This document shows positions 568-58,466 of a DNA stretch of 64,000 bases, one piece after another. The notes beneath the pieces were generated by a model. The model had not been told where the DNA came from. It saw only the letters and a list, made by a program, of their open reading frames with translations, and searched no databases. Position 1 is the first letter of the stretch. Every line of letters starts with the position of its first letter. Source of the DNA: Candidatus Parcubacteria bacterium (GTDB lineage Bacteria; Patescibacteriota; Minisyncoccia; UBA6257; HR35); the NCBI GenBank assembly GCA_026004535.1, contig BPJI01000001.1, forward strand, positions 15,915 through 79,914, given 5' to 3'. Both the position numbers and the translations under genes were made by a program.

Positions 568-3174
568 TTAAATCACATCAGGGAATTTTTGATAAAAGAT
601 TTTTTTAACAATTTCTGTGCCTAAAATAAAAACTGAGATTAAAAGCAAAGAAGCAAAAATTAGTTTTTGATCTAAAAAGGAAAATTCAAAAATTTTATTA
701 AATGGGGGCAGAAAGACGAAAATTAAAGTTAGAATAAGCCCTATTACCGAAGAAATTATAAAAGATTTACCGGGCTTAGACAAAAAGAACCAATTTTTGG
801 TTCTGATAAGAAAAGAAACAATCAAGCCAGTCATTGTTGTTAAAAAGAAGATATAAGTTCGAATAACTTCAATTGGCTGATTTTTGACAATTAAATAACC
901 AATAATATTAATAAATCCAGCAACAATGCCTAAACCTAAAAGGAGTAAAATTAAATGATAACTTGACATTTTAACCGGCTTTTTAATTTCTTTAACTTCA
1001 ACATTATCATTAGCAAAAGCAATCAAAGGAATGTCAGTTAAAAAATTAGTTAACAAAACTTGAAGTGGTGTCATTGGCACAAAAGGCAAAATTGAGGTTA
1101 AAATAGCAACTGAAGTTAAATTGCCAAAATTGTCACTCATTGTATGCTTAATATATTTGCCAATATTTTCTAAAACTCTTCGACCCTGATAAATACCATC
1201 AATAATTGTTTTCAAATCTTTTTCTTTTAAAATAATATCCGCTTCCTGTTTAACAACATCAGTGGCAGTATCAACAGCTAAAGCAACGTTTGCCATTTTT
1301 AAAGCTGGGGCATCATTAATTCCTTCACCTAAAAAACCAACAAATTTTTCTTTTTGCAAAACCTCGATGATTTTTAATTTATCTTCAGGCAAAACGCGAG
1401 CAAAAATTTTTGTTTCTTTAATAATTTTTTTCAATTCTTCACCAGTTAAATTTCTTATTTCTTCTCCAAGGACAACCTTTTCATTTTCTTCAATTAAACC
1501 AAGTTTTAAACCAACAGCCCGAGCGACATTCAATGAATCACCGGTTAAAATCTTTATTTCTAAATTTAATCTTTTGGCCAAATTGATAGCTGAGAAAGCA
1601 GTTTCTTTCAAAGGATCAACGAAAGAAGCAATGCCCAAAAATTTATTATTTACAGCTAAAGCTAATGTTCTTAAACCATTTTTATCTTCTTCTTTAAAAA
1701 TCTCTAAACAATTACCATCTTGAGTTATTTTGGCAATTTCTTCGGGTGAACCTTTAACAATTTCGATAATTTCATCATTTACTTTAACAATCACTTTTCT
1801 TATTCTTTTGATTGGGTCAAAATCAATATCTTCAATTAACTCCCAATTAGAATAATCAGGTAATTCTTTTATTTTTTCTAAAATTGCTTTTTCATAAGGA
1901 CTAGCTTCTTGAGTGAAATAATAGTCTGCTAAAAAATATTTTATAAATTCGGAACTAGCAGAAACTGACGCAGAACTAACAAAATTATTCTGTAAGTTCT
2001 GCGTAAGTTCTGTAAAGTTCTGCGTTGTTATAATTCTTTCTAACCTTAATTCATTGGTTGTAATTGTCCCTGTTTTATCAGTACATAAAATTTCAATTGC
2101 TCCTAAGTCTTCGATTGATGAAAGTCTTTTAATAATTAATCCCTTTTTAGCCAATCTATTTCCAACTAAACTTAAAGCTAAAACAGTCATTGTTGGTAAA
2201 AATTCTGGCACGATAGCAACAGCTAAAACAATTGAAAAAATTATTAATTCTTGAAAATTTAGATAACCTGGTTTGAAAAGACTAACTGTAATTATCGCCA
2301 AAGCAATGAAAATAGCAACAAAGGCAATATTTTTAGCAAATTTATCCATCATTTTTTGATAAGCTGTTTCTTTACTAATTTCAATTGTTTTTTTGGCAAT
2401 TGAACCAAAATAACTTTCTTTACCAGTAGCCAAAACAATTCCTTCAATTTCTCCCCTGATTAATGTTGTGCCTAAAAGGACAATATTTTCTGGAATAAAA
2501 GAAGATGCGGAAACTGACGCGGAACGAGCGGAATAATCGGAAGGATCGGAAACGAACCCTGACTTAGCGGAATTATCGAGAAAATTTTTTTCGTTTTTTC
2601 CATTTCTTCCGTGTCCGCTTCCGTTAGTTCCGTATATCGAGGTTTTATATATTGGCTCGCTTTCACCAGTAATTATTGATTCATCAACTAAAGCATCTGT
2701 TGTTTTTAAAATTCTAACATCAGCTGGAATCAAATAACCAGCTTGAACTTTTACATAATCTCCAGGAACCAAATATTCAGCTTCAATTTCCTGCCATTTA
2801 CCATCTCTTTTAACCCAAGCATAATTTTTAAAATAAGATAAAAGTTTTTCGCTTAATTTATTAACTCTATAATCTTGGAAAGTAGCAATTAAAATCGAAA
2901 GAATTAAAAAGAAAAAAATTAAAATAGTTTCAACTTCAGGACCGTTAATTAAAAAAGAAAGTAAACCAGCAAGAAAAAGAAAAATATTAAAAAAATTTAA
3001 AGAATTTCTTTTAATAATTTCTAAAAGATCAATCTTAAAGGAAGTAATTTTATTTAAACCAAATTTTCTTAATCTTTCTTCAGCTTCTTTTTTATCTAAT
3101 CCTTCTTGAGAAGTTTTTAATTCAGTTAAAATTTCAGCCTCACTTTTTCGAGCAAATTCAATTAATTTTTCCAT
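568..3174 (-). CDS. P-type cation-transporting ATPase (P2/P3-type, Mg/Ca-like). It carries two in-frame insertions of a short palindromic element.
   Basis: Motifs TGES, DKTGTIT, TGDSLNVA and GDGINDAPAL are present, with multiple TM helices and a length of 868 aa. The inserted peptides SARSASVSASS and QNFTELTQNLQNNFVSSASVSASS are encoded by higher-GC palindromic DNA. Confidence 0.85.
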   Translation of the reverse strand: MEKLIEFARKSEAEILTELKTSQEGLDKKEAEERLRKFGLNKITSFKIDLLEIIKRNSLNFFNIFLFLAGLLSFLINGPEVETILIFFFLILSILIATFQDYRVNKLSEKLLSYFKNYAWVKRDGKWQEIEAEYLVPGDYVKVQAGYLIPADVRILKTTDALVDESIITGESEPIYKTSIYGTNGSGHGRNGKNEKNFLDNSAKSGFVSDPSDYSARSASVSASSFIPENIVLLGTTLIRGEIEGIVLATGKESYFGSIAKKTIEISKETAYQKMMDKFAKNIAFVAIFIALAIITVSLFKPGYLNFQELIIFSIVLAVAIVPEFLPTMTVLALSLVGNRLAKKGLIIKRLSSIEDLGAIEILCTDKTGTITTNELRLERIITTQNFTELTQNLQNNFVSSASVSASSEFIKYFLADYYFTQEASPYEKAILEKIKELPDYSNWELIEDIDFDPIKRIRKVIVKVNDEIIEIVKGSPEEIAKITQDGNCLEIFKEEDKNGLRTLALAVNNKFLGIASFVDPLKETAFSAINLAKRLNLEIKILTGDSLNVARAVGLKLGLIEENEKVVLGEEIRNLTGEELKKIIKETKIFARVLPEDKLKIIEVLQKEKFVGFLGEGINDAPALKMANVALAVDTATDVVKQEADIILKEKDLKTIIDGIYQGRRVLENIGKYIKHTMSDNFGNLTSVAILTSILPFVPMTPLQVLLTNFLTDIPLIAFANDNVEVKEIKKPVKMSSYHLILLLLGLGIVAGFINIIGYLIVKNQPIEVIRTYIFFLTTMTGLIVSFLIRTKNWFFLSKPGKSFIISSVIGLILTLIFVFLPPFNKIFEFSFLDQKLIFASLLLISVFILGTEIVKKIFYQKFPDVI
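1951..2032. repeat. Palindromic element copy PE1, in-frame inside the P-type ATPase.
   Basis: Inverted repeat gcagaact...agttctgc, with tandem gtaagttctgc x3. The DNA is homologous to the copies at 21985-22085 and 44690-44812. Confidence 0.6.
2501..2640. repeat. Palindromic element copy PE2, in-frame inside the P-type ATPase (actuator-domain insertion).
   Basis: gcggaaactgacgcggaacgagcggaa ... ttccgtgtccgcttccgttagttccg form an inverted repeat. The local GC is far above background. It encodes the same SASVSASS peptide as PE1 using different codons. Confidence 0.55.
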
Positions 3175-16568: not shown

Positions 16569-19500
16569 TTAACCTTTAATAACTCCAATTGGTACTAATT
16601 TTACTACTTTTTTAGCAATCCCAATATTATGGACAACATCGACAACCGCAGAGACATCTTTATAAGCAATTGGTGCTTCCTCGGCCAAGCCTGACATACT
16701 TCCAGCAGCAACTGAAATTCCTCTTCCTTCCAATTCTTTTTTTAATTCACTTCCTCTTATTTTTCTTTTTGCTTCAGCTCTTGACATCATTCTACCTGCA
16801 CCATGAGGTGCTGAACCAAAAGAAATTTCTTTGGCTAATTCTTGACCAATTAAAACATAACTTGAAGTTCCCATCGATCCAGGAATCAATGTTGGCTGAC
16901 CAATTTGACGATATTTTTCAGGAAGCTCAGAATGACCTTGCCAAAAAGCCCTTGTTGCTCCTTTACGATGTACCAATAGCTTTTTATTATCATATTCTTC
17001 AATTTTCACAATATTATGAGCAACATCATAAACTTGTTTTAATTCAATTTCTTTACCAAAAACTTTTTTAAATGCTTTTCTTACTTCATAAGTAATAAGT
17101 TGTCTATTAGCAAAAGCAAAATTAGCTGAAGCTTTCATTGCTGATAAATAAGCTTGACCAAGTTCGTGGCTATAAGGAAAATAAGCCAATTCTCTATCAA
17201 CTAAGTCAATTCCTTGTTTATCTAAATATCTTAAAGCTTCGCGAATATAATCAGTTGCAACTTGATGGCCTAAGCCTCTTGAACCGCAATGAATTAAAAC
17301 ACAAACTTTATTTTTTTCTAAACCTAATTTTTTAGCAATTTCTTCATTCTTGTCTGTCGACCAGGCAGGAAAAATTTCAGCTACTCTTTGAATTTCAACA
17401 AAATGATTGCCAGCACCAATTGTTCCTAATTGATCCCTGCCCCGATCTTTAGCTGTTTTTGAAACCCTATCAGAATCTGCGCCTTCAATTTTTCCATAAC
17501 TTTCTGTTGCTTCTAAATCTTCTTTAGTAGCATAACCAATTTCATAAAGCCATTTTGCTCCTTCTTCTAAAACTTTTTTCATCTCATTATTATTCAATCT
17601 CCAAAAACCACCTCTACCAACACCTGAAGGAACTTCTTTAAAAATTTGTTCTGTTAATTTTGGTATTTTATCTTTAATTTCTTCATAATAAAAAGGAGAA
17701 ACTAAAAGACGAACGCCACAATTTGAAACAACAATATTATTAGCAATAAAATTGTGATCTGGATGGTCAATAGTTAAATCATAAACATAACCTGAATAAT
17801 TAATTTCTTCTATACCTTCTATTTCATCAATAACAAAATCACCATAAGAGTAAAATTTAATAAAATCTTTAAAAGAAAGAAAATTAAAAGCAATTCTTAC
17901 TTCACTTGCACCTTCCCAAATCGATCTTTCAATAAATCTTTCATTAATAAACTCACTAGAAAAAACTTTGACTAATTCTCTTTTAGAAACTCTGTTGATT
18001 AAATAATATTCTTTTATTTTGTTTCTTATATCCTGCCTTTGATTTTTTATTTTCTCTTTATATTTCAAATAAGCAAGAGCTAAGTTACTTAATTTTTGTT
18101 TTTCTTGATTATATTCAAAACCAATTGCTTCAAAAAATCTAATTAAATTCTTTGGCTCTGATTTAATTTGAAACCTTAAACCAATTGTTTTATTTTTTAT
18201 CCCTAATTCCTCCATAACTTTTATTTCTGACGTCTCGATGCCAAATTCTTTAAGCATATCTCTAATTTCTTGCATAAACTCTAAGCCATTATTTACTAAC
18301 TTTTTATTTTTATTAATATTTAAAACTAAAGCAGATAGATTAAATTTATGAAAAGCACTTGGAGAAGAAAGTTCAGCACCAAAAAACGAAGCCAAGAACA
18401 ACCTTTTTTGCCATAAAGGTAATTTTTTTAACCAATAAGGCAATTTAAATTCAACTTCTGTCTTTTTACCAATTGGATAACCCAAAGCTCCTAAAAGCAA
18501 AGCAAAACTTTTACTAATTCTTAAGCAATATTCTGTTCTTTCAAATTCACAATTTTTGCCATAAGTATTAATCAATTTATGTTTTTTCTTTCTTTTAACT
18601 ATTATTGAATTAACACCAATTTTTTCTAAATCTTTTTTTATTAGTTTTAAATCACCTAATTGACCCCATAAAGATAGATGATTAAAATTTTTAGGGATAT
18701 TTCCGTCGCCTAAGGCATAAGCAAAAATTTTAATAATATAAGGAAAAACAAATGAATCTGAATACAAAGGCAAGAGATTTTTTCTTTCTAAGTAATTAGT
18801 AATTTGAGCTAATTGATTGCCTTTTTTTGTTATACCATTTTTAGTACAAAATTCAATAAATTTTTCTTTACTTAAAATCAATATTCTTTTAGGCTTTTCA
18901 TACTTAACGCCTTTAAAGGGATAGGTTAATATTTTTTCTCCAATTTCTAAATTTTTAGCTTCCTTCATACCAAAAAGAGTATATATTGGATGATCTGGAG
19001 TTATTAAAATTTCATTTCCGAATTTTGTTTTAATTTTAAGAAGTTTTGTTTCTTTTCTCTTAAGATTTAAAATAATTTTTGCTTTTTCTAATTTTTTCTT
19101 TTTTTTGTTTAAAAGATAAACTTCAAAATCTTTATTTAAATCTTTAATTTCTAAATAAGTACCATTTTCTAAATTAACCAAAGTATCGGGATGAAGACAG
19201 TTGATATCAAAGCCAACACCGCCAGGAGAAACTGTGCCTTCTTTTCCCAGATCTGTAGCTAAAACACCACCAACGCAATTTGAAACCACAAAATTATTAG
19301 CAATAAAATTATGATCTTGATGATTAACAGTCAAATCATAAACATAATCTGAATAATCTACTTCTTCAATTTTTTCTATTTCATCAAAGCAAAAACCGCT
19401 ATTTGATAAAGCTTTTGTTTTAACAAAATCTCTTAAGCTAATAAATTTAGTTGGTACTTTAGGTTTTAAGTAATTCAAGTTATTATTTAATCGATAACAA

Positions 19501-21011
19501 ACATCTTCGATCCATCTTTGGGTAAACAATTCATTCTTCAACTTAGCTCCTATTTTTTGATAACTTAAACCTGAATTTAAAAACTGAAAGATTGAGTAAA
19601 TTAATTTCTCTCGCTCTAATAATATTTTTTTCTTAGCCCTTAAATAAATACTATAAATACTTGCTTTAGCCATTCTTCCTCGGTTATACTCATAACCTAT
19701 TTTTGACCAAAGATTCAAAAGTGATTCTAATTTGCTTGAAAAAACTAGTTCTAAAGAAATAGTTAAATTTCCATTTTTATCTTTTATTAGTCTTCTTTTA
19801 TTTATTTTTGTTGTTTCAACCCCAAATTCTTGACAAAGCTTGGCAATATCATTAAGAAAATCTAATCCATTTTTAACTAAATCAATTCTTTTGTTCATTG
19901 GATAAACAGGAGAATCAAAGCCAAATCTTCTTTTAAGACGACGATGAGGGGTTCTAAGTTCACAACCAAATAAAGTAGCTAAAAATAATCTTTTTTGCCA
20001 TAATGGTGCTTTAAAAATCCATTTAGGTACTCTGTATTTTTGATTAACTTTATTTCCTAATGGAGCACCTAAAGAAGCTAATAAAATTAAAAGACTTGAA
20101 GCATTAACATAAAATTCATAAGCTTTATATTTCCCATCCTTTATCCTTCTATAAATTTTTGAAGAATGATAGCCAATTTTTGATAAGTCTTCTTTAATCT
20201 CTAATAAATCTTCTTTTTCACCAACAAAAGATAAAACTCCGTCTTTCTTTTTACCAATAAAATTCATTGATCCATCACCAAAAATAAAAGCTAAAATTTT
20301 AATAACTTCTGGAAGTTTAGGATTGTCATAGGTTAGAGGTATGAGATTTTTTTCTTTTAATTTTTTTATAATAATTTTTAATGAATTTTTACTTTTAGAA
20401 GGATTGATTTTATTAAAAGTTTCTTTGATTGACTTTTCATCAACTATTATTTCTGAACCCGGTTTTTCAAAATGAACTCCTTCAAATCCACAAACAAGAA
20501 CTTCATCACCTATTTTTAAGTCTTCTATTTTTTTCATCCCATCCCAAGTAAAAATTGGATGGTCTTGGGTAGCAGTTATTTCTAAGCCAGATTTGGTAGT
20601 CAATTTAAATATTTTGTTATAAGGTTTTAATTTGTAAAACCTCAAAATATTGGCTTTGACTAATTTAGCTTTGCTTTTGTCAAAAAGGCAAATTTTTTCA
20701 TTTTTATATATTTTTTCAAAATCTTCAATATTTAAATAATAACCATAAGAACTTAAAATTTTAGTTCCTTTAATTAAACAAAAACCATAACCTTCATGAA
20801 CATCGGGCATAGCTAAAGCATACTTATAGGCCCCAGGTAAAGTTGCCATATTCACTAATTGCCATAAACTTTTATCTTCCAAAATATCATCCAGCATTTT
20901 TTCAGAAGCAAAAATCCGAGCAGGTACTTTCATATCTTCACGAAAACTTTGAGGAATTTCCCAAATATAATCTGAAACTTTAATTAAATCCTTTTTCTCT
21001 GGTTTTTTCAT
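16569..21011 (-). CDS. rtcB: RNA-splicing ligase RtcB. The precursor carries two full-length inteins. The start is assigned to the internal Met (MKKPEKKD), not the upstream extension.
   Basis: Extein motifs AMPDVHEGYGF | CVGGVLATD...GVGFDIN | CGVRLL are interrupted twice. Extein total is about 486 aa. Each insert begins with Cys, ends HNFIANN(F/I)VVSN, and is followed by Cys. Confidence 0.85.
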   Translation of the reverse strand: MKKPEKKDLIKVSDYIWEIPQSFREDMKVPARIFASEKMLDDILEDKSLWQLVNMATLPGAYKYALAMPDVHEGYGFCLIKGTKILSSYGYYLNIEDFEKIYKNEKICLFDKSKAKLVKANILRFYKLKPYNKIFKLTTKSGLEITATQDHPIFTWDGMKKIEDLKIGDEVLVCGFEGVHFEKPGSEIIVDEKSIKETFNKINPSKSKNSLKIIIKKLKEKNLIPLTYDNPKLPEVIKILAFIFGDGSMNFIGKKKDGVLSFVGEKEDLLEIKEDLSKIGYHSSKIYRRIKDGKYKAYEFYVNASSLLILLASLGAPLGNKVNQKYRVPKWIFKAPLWQKRLFLATLFGCELRTPHRRLKRRFGFDSPVYPMNKRIDLVKNGLDFLNDIAKLCQEFGVETTKINKRRLIKDKNGNLTISLELVFSSKLESLLNLWSKIGYEYNRGRMAKASIYSIYLRAKKKILLEREKLIYSIFQFLNSGLSYQKIGAKLKNELFTQRWIEDVCYRLNNNLNYLKPKVPTKFISLRDFVKTKALSNSGFCFDEIEKIEEVDYSDYVYDLTVNHQDHNFIANNFVVSNCVGGVLATDLGKEGTVSPGGVGFDINCLHPDTLVNLENGTYLEIKDLNKDFEVYLLNKKKKKLEKAKIILNLKRKETKLLKIKTKFGNEILITPDHPIYTLFGMKEAKNLEIGEKILTYPFKGVKYEKPKRILILSKEKFIEFCTKNGITKKGNQLAQITNYLERKNLLPLYSDSFVFPYIIKIFAYALGDGNIPKNFNHLSLWGQLGDLKLIKKDLEKIGVNSIIVKRKKKHKLINTYGKNCEFERTEYCLRISKSFALLLGALGYPIGKKTEVEFKLPYWLKKLPLWQKRLFLASFFGAELSSPSAFHKFNLSALVLNINKNKKLVNNGLEFMQEIRDMLKEFGIETSEIKVMEELGIKNKTIGLRFQIKSEPKNLIRFFEAIGFEYNQEKQKLSNLALAYLKYKEKIKNQRQDIRNKIKEYYLINRVSKRELVKVFSSEFINERFIERSIWEGASEVRIAFNFLSFKDFIKFYSYGDFVIDEIEGIEEINYSGYVYDLTIDHPDHNFIANNIVVSNCGVRLLVSPFYYEEIKDKIPKLTEQIFKEVPSGVGRGGFWRLNNNEMKKVLEEGAKWLYEIGYATKEDLEATESYGKIEGADSDRVSKTAKDRGRDQLGTIGAGNHFVEIQRVAEIFPAWSTDKNEEIAKKLGLEKNKVCVLIHCGSRGLGHQVATDYIREALRYLDKQGIDLVDRELAYFPYSHELGQAYLSAMKASANFAFANRQLITYEVRKAFKKVFGKEIELKQVYDVAHNIVKIEEYDNKKLLVHRKGATRAFWQGHSELPEKYRQIGQPTLIPGSMGTSSYVLIGQELAKEISFGSAPHGAGRMMSRAEAKRKIRGSELKKELEGRGISVAAGSMSGLAEEAPIAYKDVSAVVDVVHNIGIAKKVVKLVPIGVIKG
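17721..19199 (-). mobile_element. Intein 2 in RtcB (about 493 aa) with a LAGLIDADG homing endonuclease domain. It is paralogous to intein 1.
   Basis: N-terminal C-LHPD. FAYALGDGNIP. C-terminal DHPDHNFIANNIVVSN + C. The C-terminal about 70 nt are near-identical to intein 1. Confidence 0.75.
19278..20780 (-). mobile_element. Intein 1 in RtcB (about 501 aa) with a LAGLIDADG homing endonuclease domain.
   Basis: N-terminal C-LIKG. LAGLIDADG-type ILAFIFGDGSM. C-terminal DHNFIANNFVVSN followed by extein Cys (tgc at 19275-19277). Confidence 0.75.
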
Positions 21012-21027
21012 AATATAATAATTATAA

Positions 21028-22395
21028 ATGGATAAGAAATTATGGCAGATAATTGAAAAAGAAATAAAAAGGCAAGAAGAAACTTTAGATCTCATTCCCT
21101 CAGAAAATTTTGTTGACTTAGAAACCCTATTTATAGTTGGTTCCCCTTTAATGAATAAATATGCTGAAGGTTATCCTGGTAAAAGATATTATCCGGGAAA
21201 TAAATTTATTGATGAAATTGAAAATTTGGCTAAAGAAAGAGCTTTAAAGGTTTTTAAGTTAAATCCTAATGAGTGGGCAGTCAACGTTCAGCCTTATTCA
21301 GGTTCACCAGCAAATTTAGCTGTTTATTTAGCTTTAGCTGAACCAGGAGAGACAATAATGGGATTAAATCTGTTTCATGGTGGTCATTTAACTCATGGCC
21401 ATAAAGTTAGTTATACTGGTAAATTATTTAAATCAGTTCAATATGGAGTTAATCCTCAAACTGAAACAATTGATTATGAAGAATTAGAAAAATTAGTTTT
21501 GGAATATAAACCAAAAATCATTATTTCAGGAACAACTGCTTATCCAAGAACAATTGATTTTAAAAGAATTGGAGAAATTGCTAAAAAAGTCGGAGCTTAT
21601 CATGTTGCTGATACTTCGCATATTGCTGGTTTAGTTATTGCTAATTTGCATCCTTCTCCATTTTCCTTTGCTGATATAGTTACAATGACAACTCATAAAA
21701 CTTTAAGAGGACCAAGAGGAGCAGTTATTTTTATGAGGAAAGAACTTGAAGAAAAAATTAATAAATCTGTTTTTCCTGGTCTTCAAGGAGGACCACATAT
21801 GCAGACAATTGCTGGAATTGCTTATGCTTTTGGTCGAGCTTTGAAAAAAGATTTTTTTAATTATCAAAAACAAATAGTTAAAAATGCAAAATTTTTAGCT
21901 GAAGAACTTAAAAAAAGAGGCTTTAAATTATATACTGATGGAACCGATAATCATTTAATGATAGTTGACCTAAAACCTTTAACTCAAACTTCCTTAGGAT
22001 GCATGCAGACTAAAGCATATAGTAAACAGAACTACAACAAATTAACGCAGAAATTAGATAAAAATTCAAATTCTACTCAATCTATAGGGAAAATTGCTGA
22101 AACTCTTTTAGAAAGAGCAAATATTATCGCCAATCGTAATTCTTTACCTTCGGATACTTCACCCTTCAATCCTACTGGTATTAGATTAGGTACACCAGCA
22201 GTCACTAGTCGAGGAATGAAAGAAAAAGAAATGAAACTTATTGCTGAATTTTTTGAAAGAATCTTAATTAAAAAAGAAAAGCCAGAGAGAATTAAAAAAG
22301 AAGTTATTAAATTAGTAAAGAATTTTCCTTTGCCTTATAGAAAATGGCTGATTAGATTACATTTACTACCTTCTTCCAGATTTTTTTACCACTAA
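21028..22395 (+). CDS. glyA: Serine hydroxymethyltransferase. It carries an in-frame about 30 aa insertion from a palindromic element.
   Basis: SHMT motifs [16 protein letters not shown] and [11 protein letters not shown]. The insertion [34 protein letters not shown] sits between conserved DLKP and IGKIAE. Confidence 0.85.
21985..22085. repeat. Palindromic element copy PE3, in-frame inside glyA.
   Basis: cagaactacaacaaattaacgcagaaatta is homologous to cagaactttacagaacttacgcagaactta (PE1, same frame). The encoded [10 protein letters not shown] matches QNFTELTQNL. Confidence 0.5.
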
Positions 22396-22624
22396 AAGTT
22401 GTTTTTCTAATCGTTTTAAATTTTACTTTTCCCTCTTTTAAAGCATAAATAGTATCATCATCAGCTAGGGCGACATTTTTCCCAGGCAAAAATTTTGTTC
22501 CCCTTTGACGAACAATAATGTATCCAGGTTTTACAATTTGACCATCAAAAACCTTAACGCCTAAATATTTTGGTTTGGAATCTTTTCCGGCTCTAGCTGT
22601 TTTTCCTGACTTTTTCTGAGCCAT
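22352..22624 (-). CDS. rpmA: Ribosomal protein L27.
   Basis: [24 protein letters not shown]...[10 protein letters not shown] matches L27. Its 5' end overlaps the rpoC 3' end by 64 bp. Confidence 0.8.
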
Positions 22625-50733: not shown

Positions 50734-52752
50734 ATGCTAAGTAAAAACTTAAAAATTTTAATACTAATAACTACGGTGGTTATTTTCTTATTGCCATTTA
50801 ATAAAATAGAAGGCCTAACAACAGTTCCTGTAAGTGATTATGGAGCACGACAATTACTACAAAATATAGGTGGTTTATTAGACGTCTTAAATACTCAATT
50901 ACCAAAACTCTTAAATCCCTTAAATGTTAACACAAAAGGAATTTTAGAAAGCATGACTAATGAAAAATTAGACAAATATCTCAATGATTCTCTTAAGTTT
51001 TATGAACTAACTAGGTATGTTCAGTATTATGAAAATCAATTGAAAACTTTAGAAAAAGAGACCGAGAATTATAAAAAAGTTCAATTAGAAGAAGCAAAGA
51101 TAGCCGGTGCTTATCTTGCTTTACAAGAAATTGCACAACAAATAAAATGCACCGCACCATCCGTAAGAGATAAATTTAACGCTGCCATTGTTACAATTTT
51201 TAGTCCCTATGACTTAGCTAATAGAGCTTTAATTGGTTATTTTAAGGATATAATCAATTGTCGAGAATCATCAATGGAATCAACGATAACCAAAATGTCA
51301 AAACAAAAAAGCTCATTCGTTTTTTTACGACCATTCGTTATAACACCTTTTTTATCTCAAATAAATCTAGAAACAGACGTATCCGACTCCAGTATGATAC
51401 AAATTAAGTCAGCATTTTTAGAAACTGAACTTACAATCTATACAAACGATATAATTAACACAATATCGATCCTGGTTAACCAAAAAGTTAAAGAAAAAGT
51501 AAGAGAAAGAGAAAATGAAATTGGCACAATTAAACCCTATTATGAAAAATGTGTCTCTAAGTTAAATCTTGATACAGTAACTGATCAAGGAATAGTTTTT
51601 TGTACTGATTATAAAGTATATATCAGCGGAGAAGATTTTCGACAAATAGTTAGTGATTTAAAACGACAGATAACTAACCCTCAATTATCATTTAATCAAA
51701 CCTATGATTATCTGATGAATTTAATAAAATTTAATGAATCAACCACAGCATTAACAGTTTCAAATAGTGGTGATATATTTTTATCCGAAGCCCTAAAAGA
51801 AAAAATATGTGGAAGATTCGAGAAAGATAACGCAACAGCCGGACAATATAGCGCTTATACTCAATGCTTAAAAGATTTAGCTGAAAAATATAACGAGTAT
51901 ATAAAAAAAATTGAAGAAGAAATTAAACGTTTTAGAGACCTACAACTAGCCGCTGAATCTAAAACAGTAGAACTCGAAAATAAAGCAAAGGCGATAAATC
52001 TACCAAATGGATGCAGAGCTGGTAATAAATATTTATTTGAAATCAGAGAATATCTTGAAACAGAAAGAGAAAATTATAAAATAATAACCATCAGACTTTC
52101 AGATTTATTAGGCTTAATAGGCATTAAACTCAACGACATTAATAGGTCAATAAACCAAATGAACAGCACAATTCAAGAAATTGTTCGTGAAATAAATAAT
52201 CTTATCGATATTCTTAATGACGTCTTGAAGTTAGCAAAAATACCATTAAATATTCCACCTATAGCATTCGATATCCCTATTTTTAATGTACTCGATTTTA
52301 TATTAGGTATTGCTAAAGTAAATGCTTTACTTTTACCAGATACTATCTCAAAAATAAATAATATAACTAATAAAATATCGTCCTCGGTAGATAGTGTCGA
52401 AAATCTTTTTAACGAGAACATAGCTAATATAAATGATTTCCAAAAAACATTGAGTGAAACTTATGATAGATATGATATCTTAAGCGCCAACAATAGATTA
52501 ATGAATGACTATCCATATCTTGAGGAGAAATTAAACATATACGAAGAGTTAACTAAGCAAGATAGAGAAACCTTAGAAAAGATGGGAGTTTGCCTCGAAG
52601 AATTTTATCCATTTATTACTGACAAATCTTCAGAAAGGCAATCTTCTCAACGAATTACAATTAAACCGTCTGAGCAAAAATTTAGCTTTTTTGGTTATAT
52701 AGAAAATTTATTCAAACCAAAAATGGTTAAAATTATATACAATGAAAAATAA
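50734..52752 (+). CDS. Large secreted alpha-helical protein, hypothetical (possible T4SS surface/tip component).
   Basis: Signal peptide. 672 aa with coiled-coil segments. Confidence 0.4.
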   Translation: MLSKNLKILILITTVVIFLLPFNKIEGLTTVPVSDYGARQLLQNIGGLLDVLNTQLPKLLNPLNVNTKGILESMTNEKLDKYLNDSLKFYELTRYVQYYENQLKTLEKETENYKKVQLEEAKIAGAYLALQEIAQQIKCTAPSVRDKFNAAIVTIFSPYDLANRALIGYFKDIINCRESSMESTITKMSKQKSSFVFLRPFVITPFLSQINLETDVSDSSMIQIKSAFLETELTIYTNDIINTISILVNQKVKEKVRERENEIGTIKPYYEKCVSKLNLDTVTDQGIVFCTDYKVYISGEDFRQIVSDLKRQITNPQLSFNQTYDYLMNLIKFNESTTALTVSNSGDIFLSEALKEKICGRFEKDNATAGQYSAYTQCLKDLAEKYNEYIKKIEEEIKRFRDLQLAAESKTVELENKAKAINLPNGCRAGNKYLFEIREYLETERENYKIITIRLSDLLGLIGIKLNDINRSINQMNSTIQEIVREINNLIDILNDVLKLAKIPLNIPPIAFDIPIFNVLDFILGIAKVNALLLPDTISKINNITNKISSSVDSVENLFNENIANINDFQKTLSETYDRYDILSANNRLMNDYPYLEEKLNIYEELTKQDRETLEKMGVCLEEFYPFITDKSSERQSSQRITIKPSEQKFSFFGYIENLFKPKMVKIIYNEK

Positions 52753-54856
52753 AAATCTATTAATAATTTTTTTCTGTTTTGCACTGGTTATACTACCTTT
52801 AAAACAAGCTTGGGCTTTTATTTTTGATTGGCTAGGAGAAAAAGTTGTTAAAGGCATTGCTGGTATTATAAGATTTTTTACTAAATTTATACACGAACTT
52901 TTATTTTTCATAAATATAGATTTATTGGCTAAAATAGTAAATTATGTTGCGACACTAAATCCTTTTAAAGATGATGTTCAATATAGAGATGAGGGAGGGC
53001 AGACAAAAACAGTAATGTCTCCAGTAAAGGTTATCTGGAATATACTTAAAAATTTTGCTTATATTCTTTTAGTTTTTTCTGCTCTTTTTGCTGGTTATGA
53101 ATGGCTAATGGGAAAAGACGCAAACGCTAAAAGATTGATTTTCAATATTATTATTGTTGCTCTTCTAATTAGTTTCACTTTTGTTTTAGTTCGAGAAGCT
53201 TTTTTGGTTGTCTATGGTTTTGAAAAAGGAATAACTGGCGGTAATTCAAACCAAATTGGAACCATTATTGCTGCTTCATTATGGCAAAAAAATCCTTTTA
53301 CTGAGATAGATTCGTTTGCTAATAGTTTAGCATCACAACAAAGGGATAATGAGGAAATTTTTATATCATTAGCCAGTGCTATTGGTTATATCTTTATTAT
53401 TGTCTTTGATATGCTCATCCTCATCATTTTATTCATAACTGCCGTTTTGTTTATTATTCGTTACTTAATGATTATTTTCCTTGGCGGGACATCATCAATT
53501 GCTTTAGCAACTTTAGCTTTTCCTGAATTTAAAGGAGCACTTGGGCAAGTATTTGCTAATTTAAAGTTTTGGAATACATGGTTAGAATATTTTATCCGTT
53601 GGCTTTTGGTAATTCCTATTTTTGTTATTTTGGTTATTTTGGGTAATGCTTTAAAAGAAAATACTTTAGGCCAAATTCAAGCTCAATCTGTAAAAAGTGA
53701 TTTAATTGAGTTTATGATGCTACTTTTGATGCTAGAAGGTTGGTATATTATCTCGATTATTATCGCTAACAAAATTTCTAAAGGTGCAGCTAATCTGGGT
53801 AAAGCAGCAGCAACAGCGGCAATGCTCACTGTTGGTGGTTTGACTACCAAAGGGCTAATGAGCGCTGTTGGACCAAGAATTGGAAATATACTCTCGAAGA
53901 CTGGCGGAGAGGTAGAAGAACGTTTTGCTGGTCGTGGTTTCCTTGGGTCATGGGTTAGTCAAAAAATTGGTAAACCAGTAAAAAAAGCTGGTGAAGATAT
54001 GCTCAAAAGAAGATATGAACTAGAAGCTAAAGCAATTAAATCAAGAATTAGCACAATTGATGAACAATTAAGAAGGGAAAAAGATCCAGAAAAACAAGCA
54101 AAACTAACTGATCAATTAGTTCAATTAACAAAAAGATACGAGAATGTTCCTTATGTTTTAAAACAAATAAATGAAGAGATTGGTAAAATGTCAAGAATGT
54201 CCTTTGAAAAAATAGCGACAAATAAAGATGCTATAAGTCTTTTAGCAGGAGCTGACAAACCTCAAGAATTAAGAGAAAAAGTCATTAGTCAGGTTGATAA
54301 ATTGAGTAAAGGCACTTTAAGAAATATCTTGGGAGATAGAGAACTTTTGGAGGTTTGGAGCAAACTTTCTCTTGATGTTAGTAATGCTTTTATAGATAAA
54401 TTAGGCAAAGAGCTTAGTGATGCTGATGTTATTGAACAATTGACCAAAGAAGAAATAAGAAATCTTATACCTGGATTGCCAGGTAATTTTCAAAAAGCTA
54501 TCAATAGATTATCAAAGGGCTTTGTTGAGGCAGCTACCAAAAAAGATTTAGAAGCTGTAAGTAATGCTCTAGCTTCTTTGAGTGAAGATGTTTGGAGGCA
54601 ACCAGAAAATATTGATAAAGCGTTGAGGGGTTATGAATTAAACGATCAAGAAATCAAAGAGTCTCTTAAAAATGCTCTTACTCGAAGCACAAAGCCAGAA
54701 ATAATCATCAATACTTTAAGAAGCGCACCTAAAGGTGATCCTATAAGACGAACACTATCTTTATTAACTGATACGGAAATTAATGAAATAGAGAGAATTT
54801 TAACTCCTCAATTAAAAAATAAACTTGAAACGATCATCTTAGAAGAAAGCGCTTAA
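52742..54856 (+). CDS. Polytopic membrane protein (VirB6/TrbL-like) with a 350 aa cytoplasmic C-terminal extension.
   Basis: About 7 TM helices in the first 350 aa (FIIVFDMLILIILFITAVLFII...). It sits adjacent to the PrgI-like and VirB4 genes. Confidence 0.45.
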   Translation: MKNKNLLIIFFCFALVILPLKQAWAFIFDWLGEKVVKGIAGIIRFFTKFIHELLFFINIDLLAKIVNYVATLNPFKDDVQYRDEGGQTKTVMSPVKVIWNILKNFAYILLVFSALFAGYEWLMGKDANAKRLIFNIIIVALLISFTFVLVREAFLVVYGFEKGITGGNSNQIGTIIAASLWQKNPFTEIDSFANSLASQQRDNEEIFISLASAIGYIFIIVFDMLILIILFITAVLFIIRYLMIIFLGGTSSIALATLAFPEFKGALGQVFANLKFWNTWLEYFIRWLLVIPIFVILVILGNALKENTLGQIQAQSVKSDLIEFMMLLLMLEGWYIISIIIANKISKGAANLGKAAATAAMLTVGGLTTKGLMSAVGPRIGNILSKTGGEVEERFAGRGFLGSWVSQKIGKPVKKAGEDMLKRRYELEAKAIKSRISTIDEQLRREKDPEKQAKLTDQLVQLTKRYENVPYVLKQINEEIGKMSRMSFEKIATNKDAISLLAGADKPQELREKVISQVDKLSKGTLRNILGDRELLEVWSKLSLDVSNAFIDKLGKELSDADVIEQLTKEEIRNLIPGLPGNFQKAINRLSKGFVEAATKKDLEAVSNALASLSEDVWRQPENIDKALRGYELNDQEIKESLKNALTRSTKPEIIINTLRSAPKGDPIRRTLSLLTDTEINEIERILTPQLKNKLETIILEESA

Positions 54857-56035: not shown

Positions 56036-56661
56036 TTGCCCCAACATTTTCTTTAATTAAAGTTAAAGACATTAAAAATGACACCTTAATCCTAGCTAAT
56101 GGAGGTTTAAGAGGCATCTTAGAGGTTAGTGGCCTTAATCTTTCTTTATTAGATGAAAAAGAGCAAGAAATAATTATTAATCAGTTTAAAAATTTACTTG
56201 ATGGTTTAGATTTTCCAATTGAGATTTTAGTTCTGTCGCGGATGGAAAATATTAATAATTATTTAAAAGTTTTACATTTAAGACTTGAAGAAGAAAAAGA
56301 TCCGCTAATCAAGTTTCAATTAGAAGAATATATTAGTTTTTTAGAAGATTATTTACAAAACCATAAGATAATGAAAAAAATTTTTTATCTTGTCGTGCCC
56401 TATGATTCAATTGAAACTGACTTGGGGCCATTGGCTAAAATTCAAAAACAATCTGGCTTGGGAGAAAATGAAGAAACAAAATTTGAACAATTAGAAGCAA
56501 GAATAAATTATGTAATCGATGCTTTAAATAGCGTTGGTCTTTCTGCTTTTAGACTTTCTGATTTAGAATTAATTGAACTTTTATTTGAAGTATATAATCC
56601 TAATTTAAGGTGGCAACAATTACCAAAACAAATTATTGAAAAATTAGCCGAGGTACTATGA
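56032..56661 (+). CDS. VirB4/TrbE-family N-terminal domain (CagE_TrbE_VirB-like), encoded as a separate ORF.
   Basis: DTLILANGGLRGILEVSGLNLSLLDEKEQEIIINQFKNLLDGLDFPIEILVL matches the VirB4 N-domain pattern. There is an ATGA overlap with the ATPase ORF. Confidence 0.5.
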   Translation: MIAPTFSLIKVKDIKNDTLILANGGLRGILEVSGLNLSLLDEKEQEIIINQFKNLLDGLDFPIEILVLSRMENINNYLKVLHLRLEEEKDPLIKFQLEEYISFLEDYLQNHKIMKKIFYLVVPYDSIETDLGPLAKIQKQSGLGENEETKFEQLEARINYVIDALNSVGLSAFRLSDLELIELLFEVYNPNLRWQQLPKQIIEKLAEVL

Positions 56662-58466
56662 TTAACATTCCAAAAATACCGTTTCTAAAACAAAACCAGA
56701 AAGCAAAGATTCCTATACCTCAAGAATTAACTGCTTTTGAAAAGGTGAAAGAATTAATTGCTCCTCCAGGAGCAGAATTTGCTACTGATTACTTTCAAAT
56801 AGGCAATATTTTTGGCCGAACATTTCTTGTCATAGATTACCCTTCTTATCTTTTTTCTGGTTGGTTAGAAAAAATAATTAATTTAGACGAGGCCTTCAAT
56901 TTAAGTTTATATTTTTACCCTCTAGAAACAGGAGCGGTTTTAAAACAACTAGAAAAACAACTGGCAAGAATATCCGTACAAATACTTGAACGTGAAGAGG
57001 CAGGTAAAGTTAGATCACCTGAATTGGAAGCGGCTTACAAAAATGTTGAAGAATTAAGAGATTTACTAGCTCAGGCTGAAGAAAGAATGCTCAAGGTTGG
57101 ACTTTATTTAACAATCTTTGCCAGTGACAAAAAAGAACTTGACCAAAAATCAATAAAAATTTCAAAAATCTTAGAAAGCATTTTGGTAACAGTCAAGCCA
57201 ATTATGTTTCTTCAAAAAGAAGCATTTATCTCAACTTTACCTTTAGGCTTAGATGAGATAAAAACTAACTATCATTTAAATTCCTCAACCGCCTCTTCGT
57301 TTTTCCCTTTCATTTCTTCGGAATTAGTTGATGAATCAGGAATTTTTTTTGGTATCAATCTTCAAAATGCTGGTTTTGTTATTTTAGATCGCTGGAAATA
57401 TGAAAACCCTCATTTAATCATTTTAGCTCGCTCAGGGTCTGGGAAATCTTACACAGCCAAATTAGAAGTAATGAGAAATCTAATGATAGGAACAGACGTT
57501 TTAATTTTAGATCCTGAAAACGAATATCAAAGTATTACTGATCTTTATGGTGGCTCTTTTATTCCTCTGTCTTTAAAAGCTGACAATACATTTAACCCCT
57601 TTGATTTGCCCCCTGTTTTACCCAACGAAGAACCGATTGATATTTATAAGGAACATATTGCTGATTTAATTATTTTTTGCCAATTAATTATGAATGAAAA
57701 ATTATCATCCGAAGATTTGGCAATTTTAGATCAAGCAATTAATCAAACCTATGCTTCATTTAACATCTTACCTCATCAAGATTTCTCTAAAATTGAAAGA
57801 TTTCCAACTTTAAACGATCTAGAAAAAATCTTAAATGGTCTTGTTGGTGGAAGTAAAATTGCAAGCAAACTCTATCCTTATACCCAAGGAAACTTCAGTG
57901 GCTTTGTTAATAAACCAACGACAGTTGAACTCAACAAAAGATTAATTGTTTTTGGTTTTAAAGATCTACCTGAAATTTTAAAACCAATTGGAATGTTTGT
58001 TGTTTTAAACTATATCTTAAACAGGGTCAGACGAGAAATGAAAAAAAGACTAGTGATCATTGATGAGGCTTGGTGGATAATGAGACAAGAAATTGGGGCT
58101 GAATTTTTGTTAAATGTTGTTAAACGAGGAAGAAAATATAATTTAGCTGTAACCAATATCACTCAAGACGTTGAGGATTTTCTTAATTCTCCTTATGGTC
58201 GACCAATTATTACCAATTCAGCTATTGTTTTTTTAATGAAACAATCAACAGCAACGATTGATCTTTGTGGTCAAACTTTTGCTTTATCTGAAGGCGAAAA
58301 GCAGTTTTTACTTCAAGCTGAAAGAGGGCAAGGTTTAATTTTAGTCGGCCAAAAAAAAGCGCCTGTTTATGTTTTAGCCTCCTATGCTGAAGATCAAATT
58401 ATTCGAACCAGACCCGAACAATTAATTGCCTTAAGAAAAGCCAAAGAGGCCTTAATGAAAAAATGA
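56658..58466 (+). CDS. VirB4-like type IV secretion/conjugation ATPase (C-terminal ATPase domain).
   Basis: Walker A LARSGSGKSYT. Walker B RLVIIDEAWWIM. ITQDVEDF. Length 602 aa. Confidence 0.7.
   Translation: MINIPKIPFLKQNQKAKIPIPQELTAFEKVKELIAPPGAEFATDYFQIGNIFGRTFLVIDYPSYLFSGWLEKIINLDEAFNLSLYFYPLETGAVLKQLEKQLARISVQILEREEAGKVRSPELEAAYKNVEELRDLLAQAEERMLKVGLYLTIFASDKKELDQKSIKISKILESILVTVKPIMFLQKEAFISTLPLGLDEIKTNYHLNSSTASSFFPFISSELVDESGIFFGINLQNAGFVILDRWKYENPHLIILARSGSGKSYTAKLEVMRNLMIGTDVLILDPENEYQSITDLYGGSFIPLSLKADNTFNPFDLPPVLPNEEPIDIYKEHIADLIIFCQLIMNEKLSSEDLAILDQAINQTYASFNILPHQDFSKIERFPTLNDLEKILNGLVGGSKIASKLYPYTQGNFSGFVNKPTTVELNKRLIVFGFKDLPEILKPIGMFVVLNYILNRVRREMKKRLVIIDEAWWIMRQEIGAEFLLNVVKRGRKYNLAVTNITQDVEDFLNSPYGRPIITNSAIVFLMKQSTATIDLCGQTFALSEGEKQFLLQAERGQGLILVGQKKAPVYVLASYAEDQIIRTRPEQLIALRKAKEALMKK

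Follow-up and report, generated by a model that had tools for sequence, protein, structure and literature searches.

How did a single gene of a Candidatus Parcubacteria bacterium come to carry two large inteins only 26 codons apart, and would its enzyme be restored once they are removed? We addressed this question for rtcB, which encodes a 3'-phosphate/5'-OH RNA ligase, in a stretch of 64,000 nucleotides from contig BPJI01000001.1 (hereafter the window). A first-pass annotation of this DNA had described two paralogous LAGLIDADG inteins in the gene and had supposed that one of them seeded the other. Our analysis makes it very likely that the rtcB gene of this candidate phyla radiation (CPR) genome holds two mobile inteins, which are spliced by the class-1 route and were acquired horizontally, not by internal duplication. 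The double-intein layout itself is already known, and what is new here is the co-conversion signature seen against intein-free sister genomes.

As previously annotated, the mechanical list of open reading frames (ORFs) gives a frame of 1508 aa at this locus, which we found on the minus strand (16569..21095) in a region of 26-30% G+C. The real start of rtcB is probably M29, at 21009..21011, leaving the first 28 codons of the ORF untranslated and a precursor of 1480 aa, since a public protein of 1480 aa and the intein-free orthologs all begin with MKKPEKKDL. This public protein, KatS3mg096_032 from Candidatus Parcubacteria bacterium, is deposited as a "hypothetical protein" and is a 100% match to the precursor. 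The 5' extension to 21095 would overlap the divergent glyA start at 21028, whereas a start at M29 (21011) gives no overlap. Parsing of the translation recovered exactly the inserts that had been proposed, 501 aa after GYGF and 493 aa after GVGFDIN, 26 residues apart, and the annotated span 17721..20780 has the last nucleotide of intein 2 and the first of intein 1 as its exact limits. The extein, announced as about 486 aa, is 486 aa when counted from M29. The features of the gene are as follows:

16569..21011, minus strand: rtcB precursor coding sequence with its probable start, 1480 aa and stop (from the ORF list, the public protein and the ortholog starts)
20781..21011, minus strand: N-extein, 77 aa, ending ...MPDVHEGYGF (aligned to Pyrococcus horikoshii RtcB up to Phe72)
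19278..20780, minus strand: intein 1 (site 1), 501 aa, predicted class-1 intein with a LAGLIDADG homing-endonuclease domain (from Pfam, motifs and model)
20778..20780, minus strand: Cys1 of intein 1
20556..20576, minus strand: block B of intein 1 (TATQDHP)
20268..20297, minus strand: LAGLIDADG motif 1 of intein 1 (ILAFIFGDGS)
19956..19988, minus strand: LAGLIDADG motif 2 of intein 1 (LFLATLFGCEL)
19278..19346, minus strand: blocks F and G of intein 1 (YVYDLTVNHQDHNFIANNFVVSN)
19200..19277, minus strand: inter-intein extein, 26 aa, CVGGVLATDLGKEGTVSPGGVGFDIN, containing the Asp95-equivalent metal ligand
17721..19199, minus strand: intein 2 (site 2), 493 aa, predicted class-1 intein with a LAGLIDADG homing-endonuclease domain (from Pfam, motifs and model)
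19197..19199, minus strand: Cys1 of intein 2
18987..19004, minus strand: block B of intein 2 (ITPDHP)
18699..18728, minus strand: LAGLIDADG motif 1 of intein 2 (IFAYALGDGN)
18369..18401, minus strand: LAGLIDADG motif 2 of intein 2 (LFLASFFGAEL)
17721..17789, minus strand: blocks F and G of intein 2 (YVYDLTIDHPDHNFIANNIVVSN)
16569..17720, minus strand: C-extein, 383 aa and stop, beginning CGVRLL (aligned to P. horikoshii RtcB, PH1602)

Joining the three extein pieces reconstituted an intact RtcB. The spliced 486-aa extein covered the whole Pfam RtcB model (PF01139, 1-426/426, E-value 2.6e-164) and aligned with PH1602 (PDB 1uc2, E-value 6e-147) without any gap at the two junctions, which confirms both insertion points. 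By this alignment, and in P. horikoshii numbering, intein 1 is inserted between Phe72 and Pro73 (site 1) and intein 2 between Asn97 and Cys98 (site 2). Residues equivalent to Asp95, Cys98, His203, His234, His329 and His404 are all identical in the spliced extein, with the Cys98 equivalent and the four His equivalents all within the C-extein. In RtcB, the two Mn ions are bridged by Cys98; their coordination is completed by Asp95 and His203 in M2 and by His234 and His329 in M1, and guanylylation uses His404 as its nucleophile (PMC9745838). Since site 2 precedes Cys98, the D-x-x-C metal motif is split by intein 2 and the +1 nucleophile of this intein is the catalytic Cys; the first Cys of the C-extein is thus also the equivalent of the Mn-bridging ligand. 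The term active-site metal-binding region, which had been given at GYGF, holds strictly only for site 2, where Asp95 and Cys98 are separated, and not for site 1, which interrupts a strictly conserved motif with no reported metal ligand. The +1 nucleophile of intein 1 is the first Cys of the inter-intein extein, a position occupied by Pro in intein-free alleles.

We then compared the two inserts with the inteins of related RtcBs, using the insertion points of the 120 best database homologs as mapped from phmmer domain coordinates (mapping from BLAST high-scoring segment pairs was too noisy). A site-1 intein was found in 62 of these proteins, a site-2 intein in 68, and both in 20. The Pfam Intein_splicing model matched intein 1 (E-value 8.4e-22) and intein 2 (E-value 1.6e-22), each match spanning the N- and C-terminal ends, and intein 2 also matched the Vint model (E-value 8e-6). 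Profile search and homolog alignments together located the Hint blocks A, B, F and G in both inserts. Intein 1 starts with CLIKGTKI and ends with NFVVSN, and intein 2 starts with CLHPDTLV and ends with NIVVSN. An initial Cys and a +1 Cys are present for both, as had been noted. The block A Cys1 is kept in 62/62 site-1 and 67/68 site-2 homologs. In block B, the TxxH motif reads T71-Q-D-H74 in intein 1 and T67-P-D-H70 in intein 2, and its His is invariant in both alignments. Blocks F and G read YVYDLT..DHNFIANN.VVSN/C in both inteins (the slash marking the junction), with the block-F Asp and His, the terminal Asn and the +1 Cys invariant. Overall, the invariant residues were C1, T71, D73, H74, D482, H490, S500 and N501 for intein 1 (aligned with 29 site-1 homologs), and C1, H70, D474, H482, S492 and N493 for intein 2 (aligned with 33 site-2 homologs).

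The inserts had been said to end with HN; in fact both end with VVSN, and the HN belongs to the block-F His of DHNFIANN, 10-11 residues upstream. The penultimate His (block G position 6) is therefore missing from both inteins and replaced by Ser. SN/C termini were tabulated in 60/62 site-1 and 63/68 site-2 inteins, and the two site-1 exceptions (P0008, P0067) are 5-residue mis-registers of the boundary that read ...FVVSNC, making site 1 effectively 62/62. Only five site-2 inteins end with HN, three of them from Methanococcales hosts (P0027, P0030, P0038). According to the passage of PMC4031507 that cites Chen, Benner & Perler 2000 (its reference 74), the penultimate His is common and not obligatory, and inteins lacking it can splice; the Ser therefore does not exclude membership of class 1. 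No experiment on such a penultimate Ser was found in the searched literature.

Regarding the endonuclease, each intein contains two LAGLIDADG-type helices, ILAFIFGDG and LFLATLFGCE in intein 1 and IFAYALGDG and LFLASFFGAE in intein 2; the motifs ILAFIFGDGS and FAYALGDGN quoted in the first-pass annotation are among them. The acidic residues of these motifs are kept in both window inteins, with Asp in 116/129 and Glu in 113/129 family members, and PF14528 is a precomputed match on several homologs. AlphaFold2 models built from the family alignments reached a mean predicted local distance difference test score of 90.4 for intein 1 and 94.6 for intein 2, the model of intein 1 showing one low-confidence loop (residues 279-287) directly after LAGLIDADG motif 2. 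Both models display a Hint fold together with a LAGLIDADG alpha-beta-beta-alpha-beta-beta-alpha fold. Foldseek matched intein 1 to the TliVMA intein (1.6e-18), PI-PfuI (2.8e-15) and PI-SceI (4e-11), and intein 2 to the TliVMA intein (6e-16), PI-PfuI (5e-13) and PI-TkoII (2e-12). The Hint part matched mini-inteins over ~95-112 aligned columns, mostly with a root mean square deviation of 1.2-2.4 A, and the central domain matched I-AniI, I-OnuI, I-SceI and I-Tsp061I (E-values between 1e-5 and 1e-3). Between the LAGLIDADG core and block F, both inteins have a helical module of ~90 residues (~367-456 of intein 1, ~19413..19682, and ~365-450 of intein 2), with a ~36-residue helix and a helix-turn-helix-like stretch (GLSYQKIG in intein 1); no Pfam match covers it, and it may be an extra DNA-binding domain. 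Taken together, sequence and models suggest that each intein consists of a Hint splicing domain, a double-motif LAGLIDADG homing endonuclease and this extra helical module.

Intein-free rtcB was sought by scanning one genome per species. Such alleles do exist, as the first-pass annotation had anticipated, and encode 478 aa in two close relatives, Candidatus Parcubacteria KatS3mg094 from the same series of metagenome-assembled genomes (L005) and bacterium HR35 (L006); in both, rtcB adjoins glyA as in the window. The intein-free insertion sites of L005 and L006 read GGCTACGGTTCA/CCGGTGGGCGGG and TATGATATTAAC/TGTGGGGTCAGA. The window extein is 92% identical to these orthologs in amino acids and ~88% in DNA. 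Along the extein, the DNA identity stays at 0.9-1.0 almost throughout and falls to ~0.6 between extein nt 181 and 305. This divergent tract begins ~50 nt before intein 1, takes in all 78 nt of the inter-intein segment and ends at the border of intein 2. Its upstream part and the comparisons of tract and remaining extein are given below:

20781..20831, minus strand: upstream part of the putatively co-converted (foreign) extein tract, which with 19200..19277 forms extein nt 181-309 (129 nt)
Window against L005: tract 86/126 (68%), rest of the extein 1207/1311 (92%), Fisher p 7e-13
Window against L006: tract 66%, rest of the extein 91%
L005 against L006 (both intein-free): tract 87%, rest 90%, Fisher p 0.36
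Window against L001 (two inteins): tract 83%, rest 80%, Fisher p 0.42

The inter-intein peptide shares only 60% identity with the closest orthologs, against 72-76% with the two-intein RtcBs of Omnitrophota and Methanocaldococcus, the exteins of which are otherwise only ~52% identical to that of the window. In addition, Cys stands at +1 in all the confidently delimited site-1 hosts. Among the proteins without a site-1 intein, 41 yielded the motif, and 26 of these have Pro at this position. A Pro-to-Cys substitution is therefore carried by the mature enzyme wherever site 1 is occupied. This mosaic extein is the pattern predicted by homing with co-conversion of the flanking extein, and it points to such an event in the history of the gene.

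The only other sharp dip along the identity profile corresponds to an 8-residue insertion in the C-extein, PAWSTDKN (17346..17369), which both the intein-free orthologs and P. horikoshii RtcB lack.

How the two inteins relate to each other bears directly on their origin. They are homologous over their whole length (187/482 identical, 38%), and a recent jump of one of them over 26 codons, in this gene and this lineage, would account for this homology, with the similar 3' ends as its remnant or as a product of gene conversion. Switching between sites is indeed seen at the family level: seven site-2 inteins (P0047, P0050, P0065, P0086, P0088, P0091, P0114) are 51-66% identical to site-1 and 41-49% to site-2 inteins, some of them beginning with the site-1-type N-terminus CLTKDTKI, so that non-allelic jumps between the two sites have happened in this family. 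However, each window intein is closer (63-77%) to same-site inteins of other organisms than to its neighbor: intein 1 shares 60-63% identity with the site-1 inteins of other CPR bacteria and 71% with that of Candidatus Paceibacter KUB_Bin06 (L001), and the site-2 intein of P0005, a Parcubacteria RtcB without a site-1 intein, reaches 77% identity with intein 2. Within one protein, the site-1 and site-2 inteins are similarly distant (31-45%) in all 20 two-intein proteins, and the site-1 inteins, with a mean identity of 58%, cluster more tightly than the site-2 inteins (40%), within whose wider diversity they are nested. A neighbor-joining tree from pairwise identities placed each window intein inside a same-site CPR clade; it has no support values and was used only for coarse same-site grouping, with which the raw identities agree independently. 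As for the 3' ends, the last ~70 nt had been called nearly identical, but the last 72 nt match at 63 positions (87.5%) and the last 111 nt at 85%. The C-terminal 37 residues are ~78% identical, and the same codon is used at 24 of 28 identical residues where 18.3 are expected from codon usage. This is only mildly above expectation and we did not take it as evidence for recent gene conversion between the 3' ends; most of the likeness is explained by blocks F and G, which are conserved family-wide and written in A+T-biased codons. A recent duplication in this gene is thus hardly credible, and "paralogous" applies to the two inteins as homologs over their whole length, not as recent paralogs one of which seeded the other. 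By their sequences, they rather appear to be two old, site-specific lineages of one intein family. A further question is whether both inteins and the 26-codon segment entered together, as a block of ~3.1 kb from a two-intein donor allele. The extent of the foreign tract, ending at intein 2, is what such an entry would leave, the inter-intein peptide is like that of other RtcBs with two inteins, and in L001, where the layout is the same, the two inteins are equally distant (71%, 71%) and the inter-intein segment is 77% identical. By contrast, P0005 (extein 89%) has only the site-2 intein, which is closer to intein 2 of the window than that of L001 is (77% against 71%); this fits better with an older intein 2 and a later intein 1 whose co-conversion tract reached intein 2. 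We therefore consider a joint entry possible but doubtful.

Horizontal acquisition of two functional inteins must also be weighed against decay, in which splicing is kept while the endonucleases are dead relics or, in the extreme form, splicing is impaired and rtcB non-functional. Several points favor decay or weigh against our interpretation. For want of the penultimate His, C-terminal cleavage could in principle be slowed or impaired. The Pfam LAGLIDADG_3 scores are weak (E-value 3.5e-5 for the full protein, 24.4 bits for a cut-off of 22.5 with no individual stretch passing; 0.005 for isolated intein 1 and no match for isolated intein 2), so that the LAGLIDADG assignment, marginal by profile, rests on the two motifs and the fold. 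Intein 1 also has its low-confidence loop at residues 279-287, and both the splicing and the endonuclease activities are predicted from sequence and modelled structure only. Concerning the origin, part of the divergence of the tract could be due to selection for flanking residues that are compatible with splicing, and the event may have been a gain in the window lineage or, instead, the sister lineages may have had their inteins replaced with an intein-free allele. Nevertheless, decay is very unlikely given that the ORF is intact over 4.4 kb at a G+C content where stops arise easily, that neither the splicing residues nor the two LAGLIDADG acidic residues have been lost, all of them being conserved family-wide, that SN termini are the family norm, cultured methanogens included, and that the active site of the extein is intact. 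In methanogens, RtcB is expected to be needed for tRNA splicing. A more elaborate proposal, which we regard as rather improbable, is that the two sites form a coupled landing pad for one family, with repeated switching between them, movement of the double-intein block and its inter-intein extein between phyla as a cassette, and redox- or metal-conditional splicing that gates RtcB. Its basis is that some site-2 inteins are 61-66% identical to site-1 and ~46% to other site-2 inteins. Speculatively, splicing could be conditional on redox state or metal, and gate RtcB post-translationally, because both +1 residues are Cys, one of them an oxidation-sensitive Mn-bridging ligand, and the penultimate His is swapped for Ser.

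The downstream extein flanks of the two sites (TGCGTTGGTGGTGTTTTAGCT, TGTGGCGTTCGTCTTTTAGTT) agree at 14/21 positions by eye; this comparison is post hoc and has no proper control, and we make no claim from it.

Under horizontal acquisition with class-1 splicing, the proposed working of the gene would be as follows. The inteins would have arrived horizontally, their endonucleases cutting intein-free rtcB alleles and repair copying the intein in (homing); co-conversion would have brought in all 78 nt between them as well as ~50 nt of extein upstream of intein 1. The presence/absence polymorphism in close relatives and the co-conversion-like tract lend such cutting indirect support. The 1480-aa precursor would be translated first. 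In each intein, an N-S acyl shift at Cys1 would then be followed by trans-thioesterification to the +1 Cys, by cyclisation of the C-terminal Asn and finally by an S-N shift, and the extein pieces of 77, 26 and 383 aa would be joined into the 486-aa RtcB. As the penultimate Ser is conserved family-wide, Asn cyclisation is presumably aided by other residues, for example the block-F Asp and His. No active site would exist before intein 2 has left, because this intein separates Asp95 from Cys98; the Cys98 equivalent would thus serve first as splicing nucleophile and afterwards as Mn-bridging ligand. Excision of intein 1, between the Phe72 and Pro73 equivalents, would leave the Pro-to-Cys change in the mature enzyme.

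Two inteins in one gene had been considered notable, but the layout recurs in 20 of the 120 best homologs and in several phyla. The hosts among these homologs include Parcubacteria/Patescibacteria, Omnitrophota, Elusimicrobia, Chloroflexota and Babeliales as well as cultured methanogens. The RtcB of Methanocaldococcus indicus (1402 aa) has inteins at both sites, and that of Methanotorris formicicus (1930 aa) has three, two of them at sites 1 and 2. When intein 1 was compared with 1.84 billion cluster representatives in a full HMMER scan, 148 clusters were found at E<=1e-30 and 497 at E<=1e-10. A published survey documents 27 bacterial and 10 archaeal inteins in RtcB, which it lists as a frequent host (PMC4760082), in agreement with the first-pass description of RtcB as a known host. 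Overall, this gene is a well-preserved, ordinary case of a populous known class, the intein-containing RtcB. Our literature searches returned nothing specific on named RtcB intein sites, inteins in CPR bacteria or "penultimate Ser" inteins, and scanning ten large ORFs of the window against Pfam revealed no other intein.

Other insertions were observed in the homologs. Inserts of 413-468 aa follow extein residue ~247 (P0027, P0030, P0072) and ~408 (P0066, P0094), which brings the large-insert sites of RtcB among these homologs to at least four. Five CPR RtcBs (P0002, P0003, P0006, P0017, P0048) contain an in-frame insertion of ~120-180 aa at extein position ~347-350, which matches PF13366 (PD-(D/E)XK "GxxExxY" domain) in the loop ...IEEY/DNKK/LLVHRKG. 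This insertion is without intein-like termini, having no Cys/Ser1 and no Asn-Cys junction; from its sequence it looks like a nuclease-like domain lodged in RtcB without splicing signals.

In the window, the start codons of rtcB and glyA are divergent and 16 nt apart (21012..21027). L005 and L006 have an extra gene between rtcB and glyA (2300..3000), an unannotated ORF of 140 aa in L005 and of 215 aa in L006, so the rtcB-glyA neighborhood has been rearranged as well. The glyA product of the window (21028..22395, plus strand), a serine hydroxymethyltransferase, is 455 aa long, compared with 416-418 aa for its L005 and L006 orthologs. It contains an extra in-frame segment of ~37 aa at 21982..22092, where the orthologs have ~6 residues, and the Pfam SHMT model matches it in two stretches. 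Its C-terminus is also longer than those of the orthologs and overlaps an L27-like ORF on the opposite strand (22352..22624). Farther away, two adjacent large ORFs on the plus strand (50734..54856 and 56658..58466, 672 and 704 aa) gave no Pfam match at E<=1e-5; downstream of them lies a VirB4/TraG-like ATPase (CagE_TrbE_VirB, TraG P-loop), and this may be a type-IV-secretion or competence-like cluster.

As a practical consequence, the annotation of KatS3mg096_032 should read intein-containing RtcB with a mature product of 486 aa. The locus and its sister genomes provide a clean natural presence/absence polymorphism of inteins with a statistically clear mosaic tract, and the sites of L005 and L006 are ready substrates for the two predicted endonucleases. 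The conserved penultimate Ser and the Pro-to-Cys "scar" of site 1 are small mechanistic points. The scientific value remains modest, and the understanding of inteins or of RtcB is unchanged by this locus.

Among known systems, the archaeal RtcB inteins (P. horikoshii PH1602, Methanocaldococcus, Methanotorris) resemble those of the window in host protein, intein family and motif layout. PH1602 is said, in the title of a 2006 report by Okada et al., to contain an intein. The archaeal two-intein RtcBs show 35-37% identity between their own site-1 and site-2 inteins; their site-2 inteins end with HN, whereas those of the window end with SN, and the host of the window is a CPR bacterium. In P. horikoshii, the RtcB intein probably lies before Cys98. 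Another known group is that of the bacterial records named "intein-containing RtcB/RctB family protein", which have the same two sites, SN/C termini and inteins of ~500 aa; the window protein differs from these annotated cases in being deposited as a "hypothetical protein", and the window also has intein-free sister genomes that expose the co-conversion tract. The inteins that splice without a penultimate His, as PMC4031507 cites them from Chen, Benner & Perler 2000, also lack His at block G position 6 and, like the elements of the window, have evidently been kept as inteins all the same; in the RtcB family this position is a conserved Ser. Finally, PI-PfuI, PI-TkoII, PI-SceI and the TliVMA intein, the best Foldseek matches (E-values of 1e-18 to 1e-9), share with the window inteins a Hint domain split by a LAGLIDADG endonuclease. 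They reside in other host genes with only 10-16% sequence identity, and the TM-scores against these characterised inteins are low (~0.3) because the domain orientations differ. Unlike them, the RtcB inteins possess the ~90-aa helical module before block F and the penultimate Ser.

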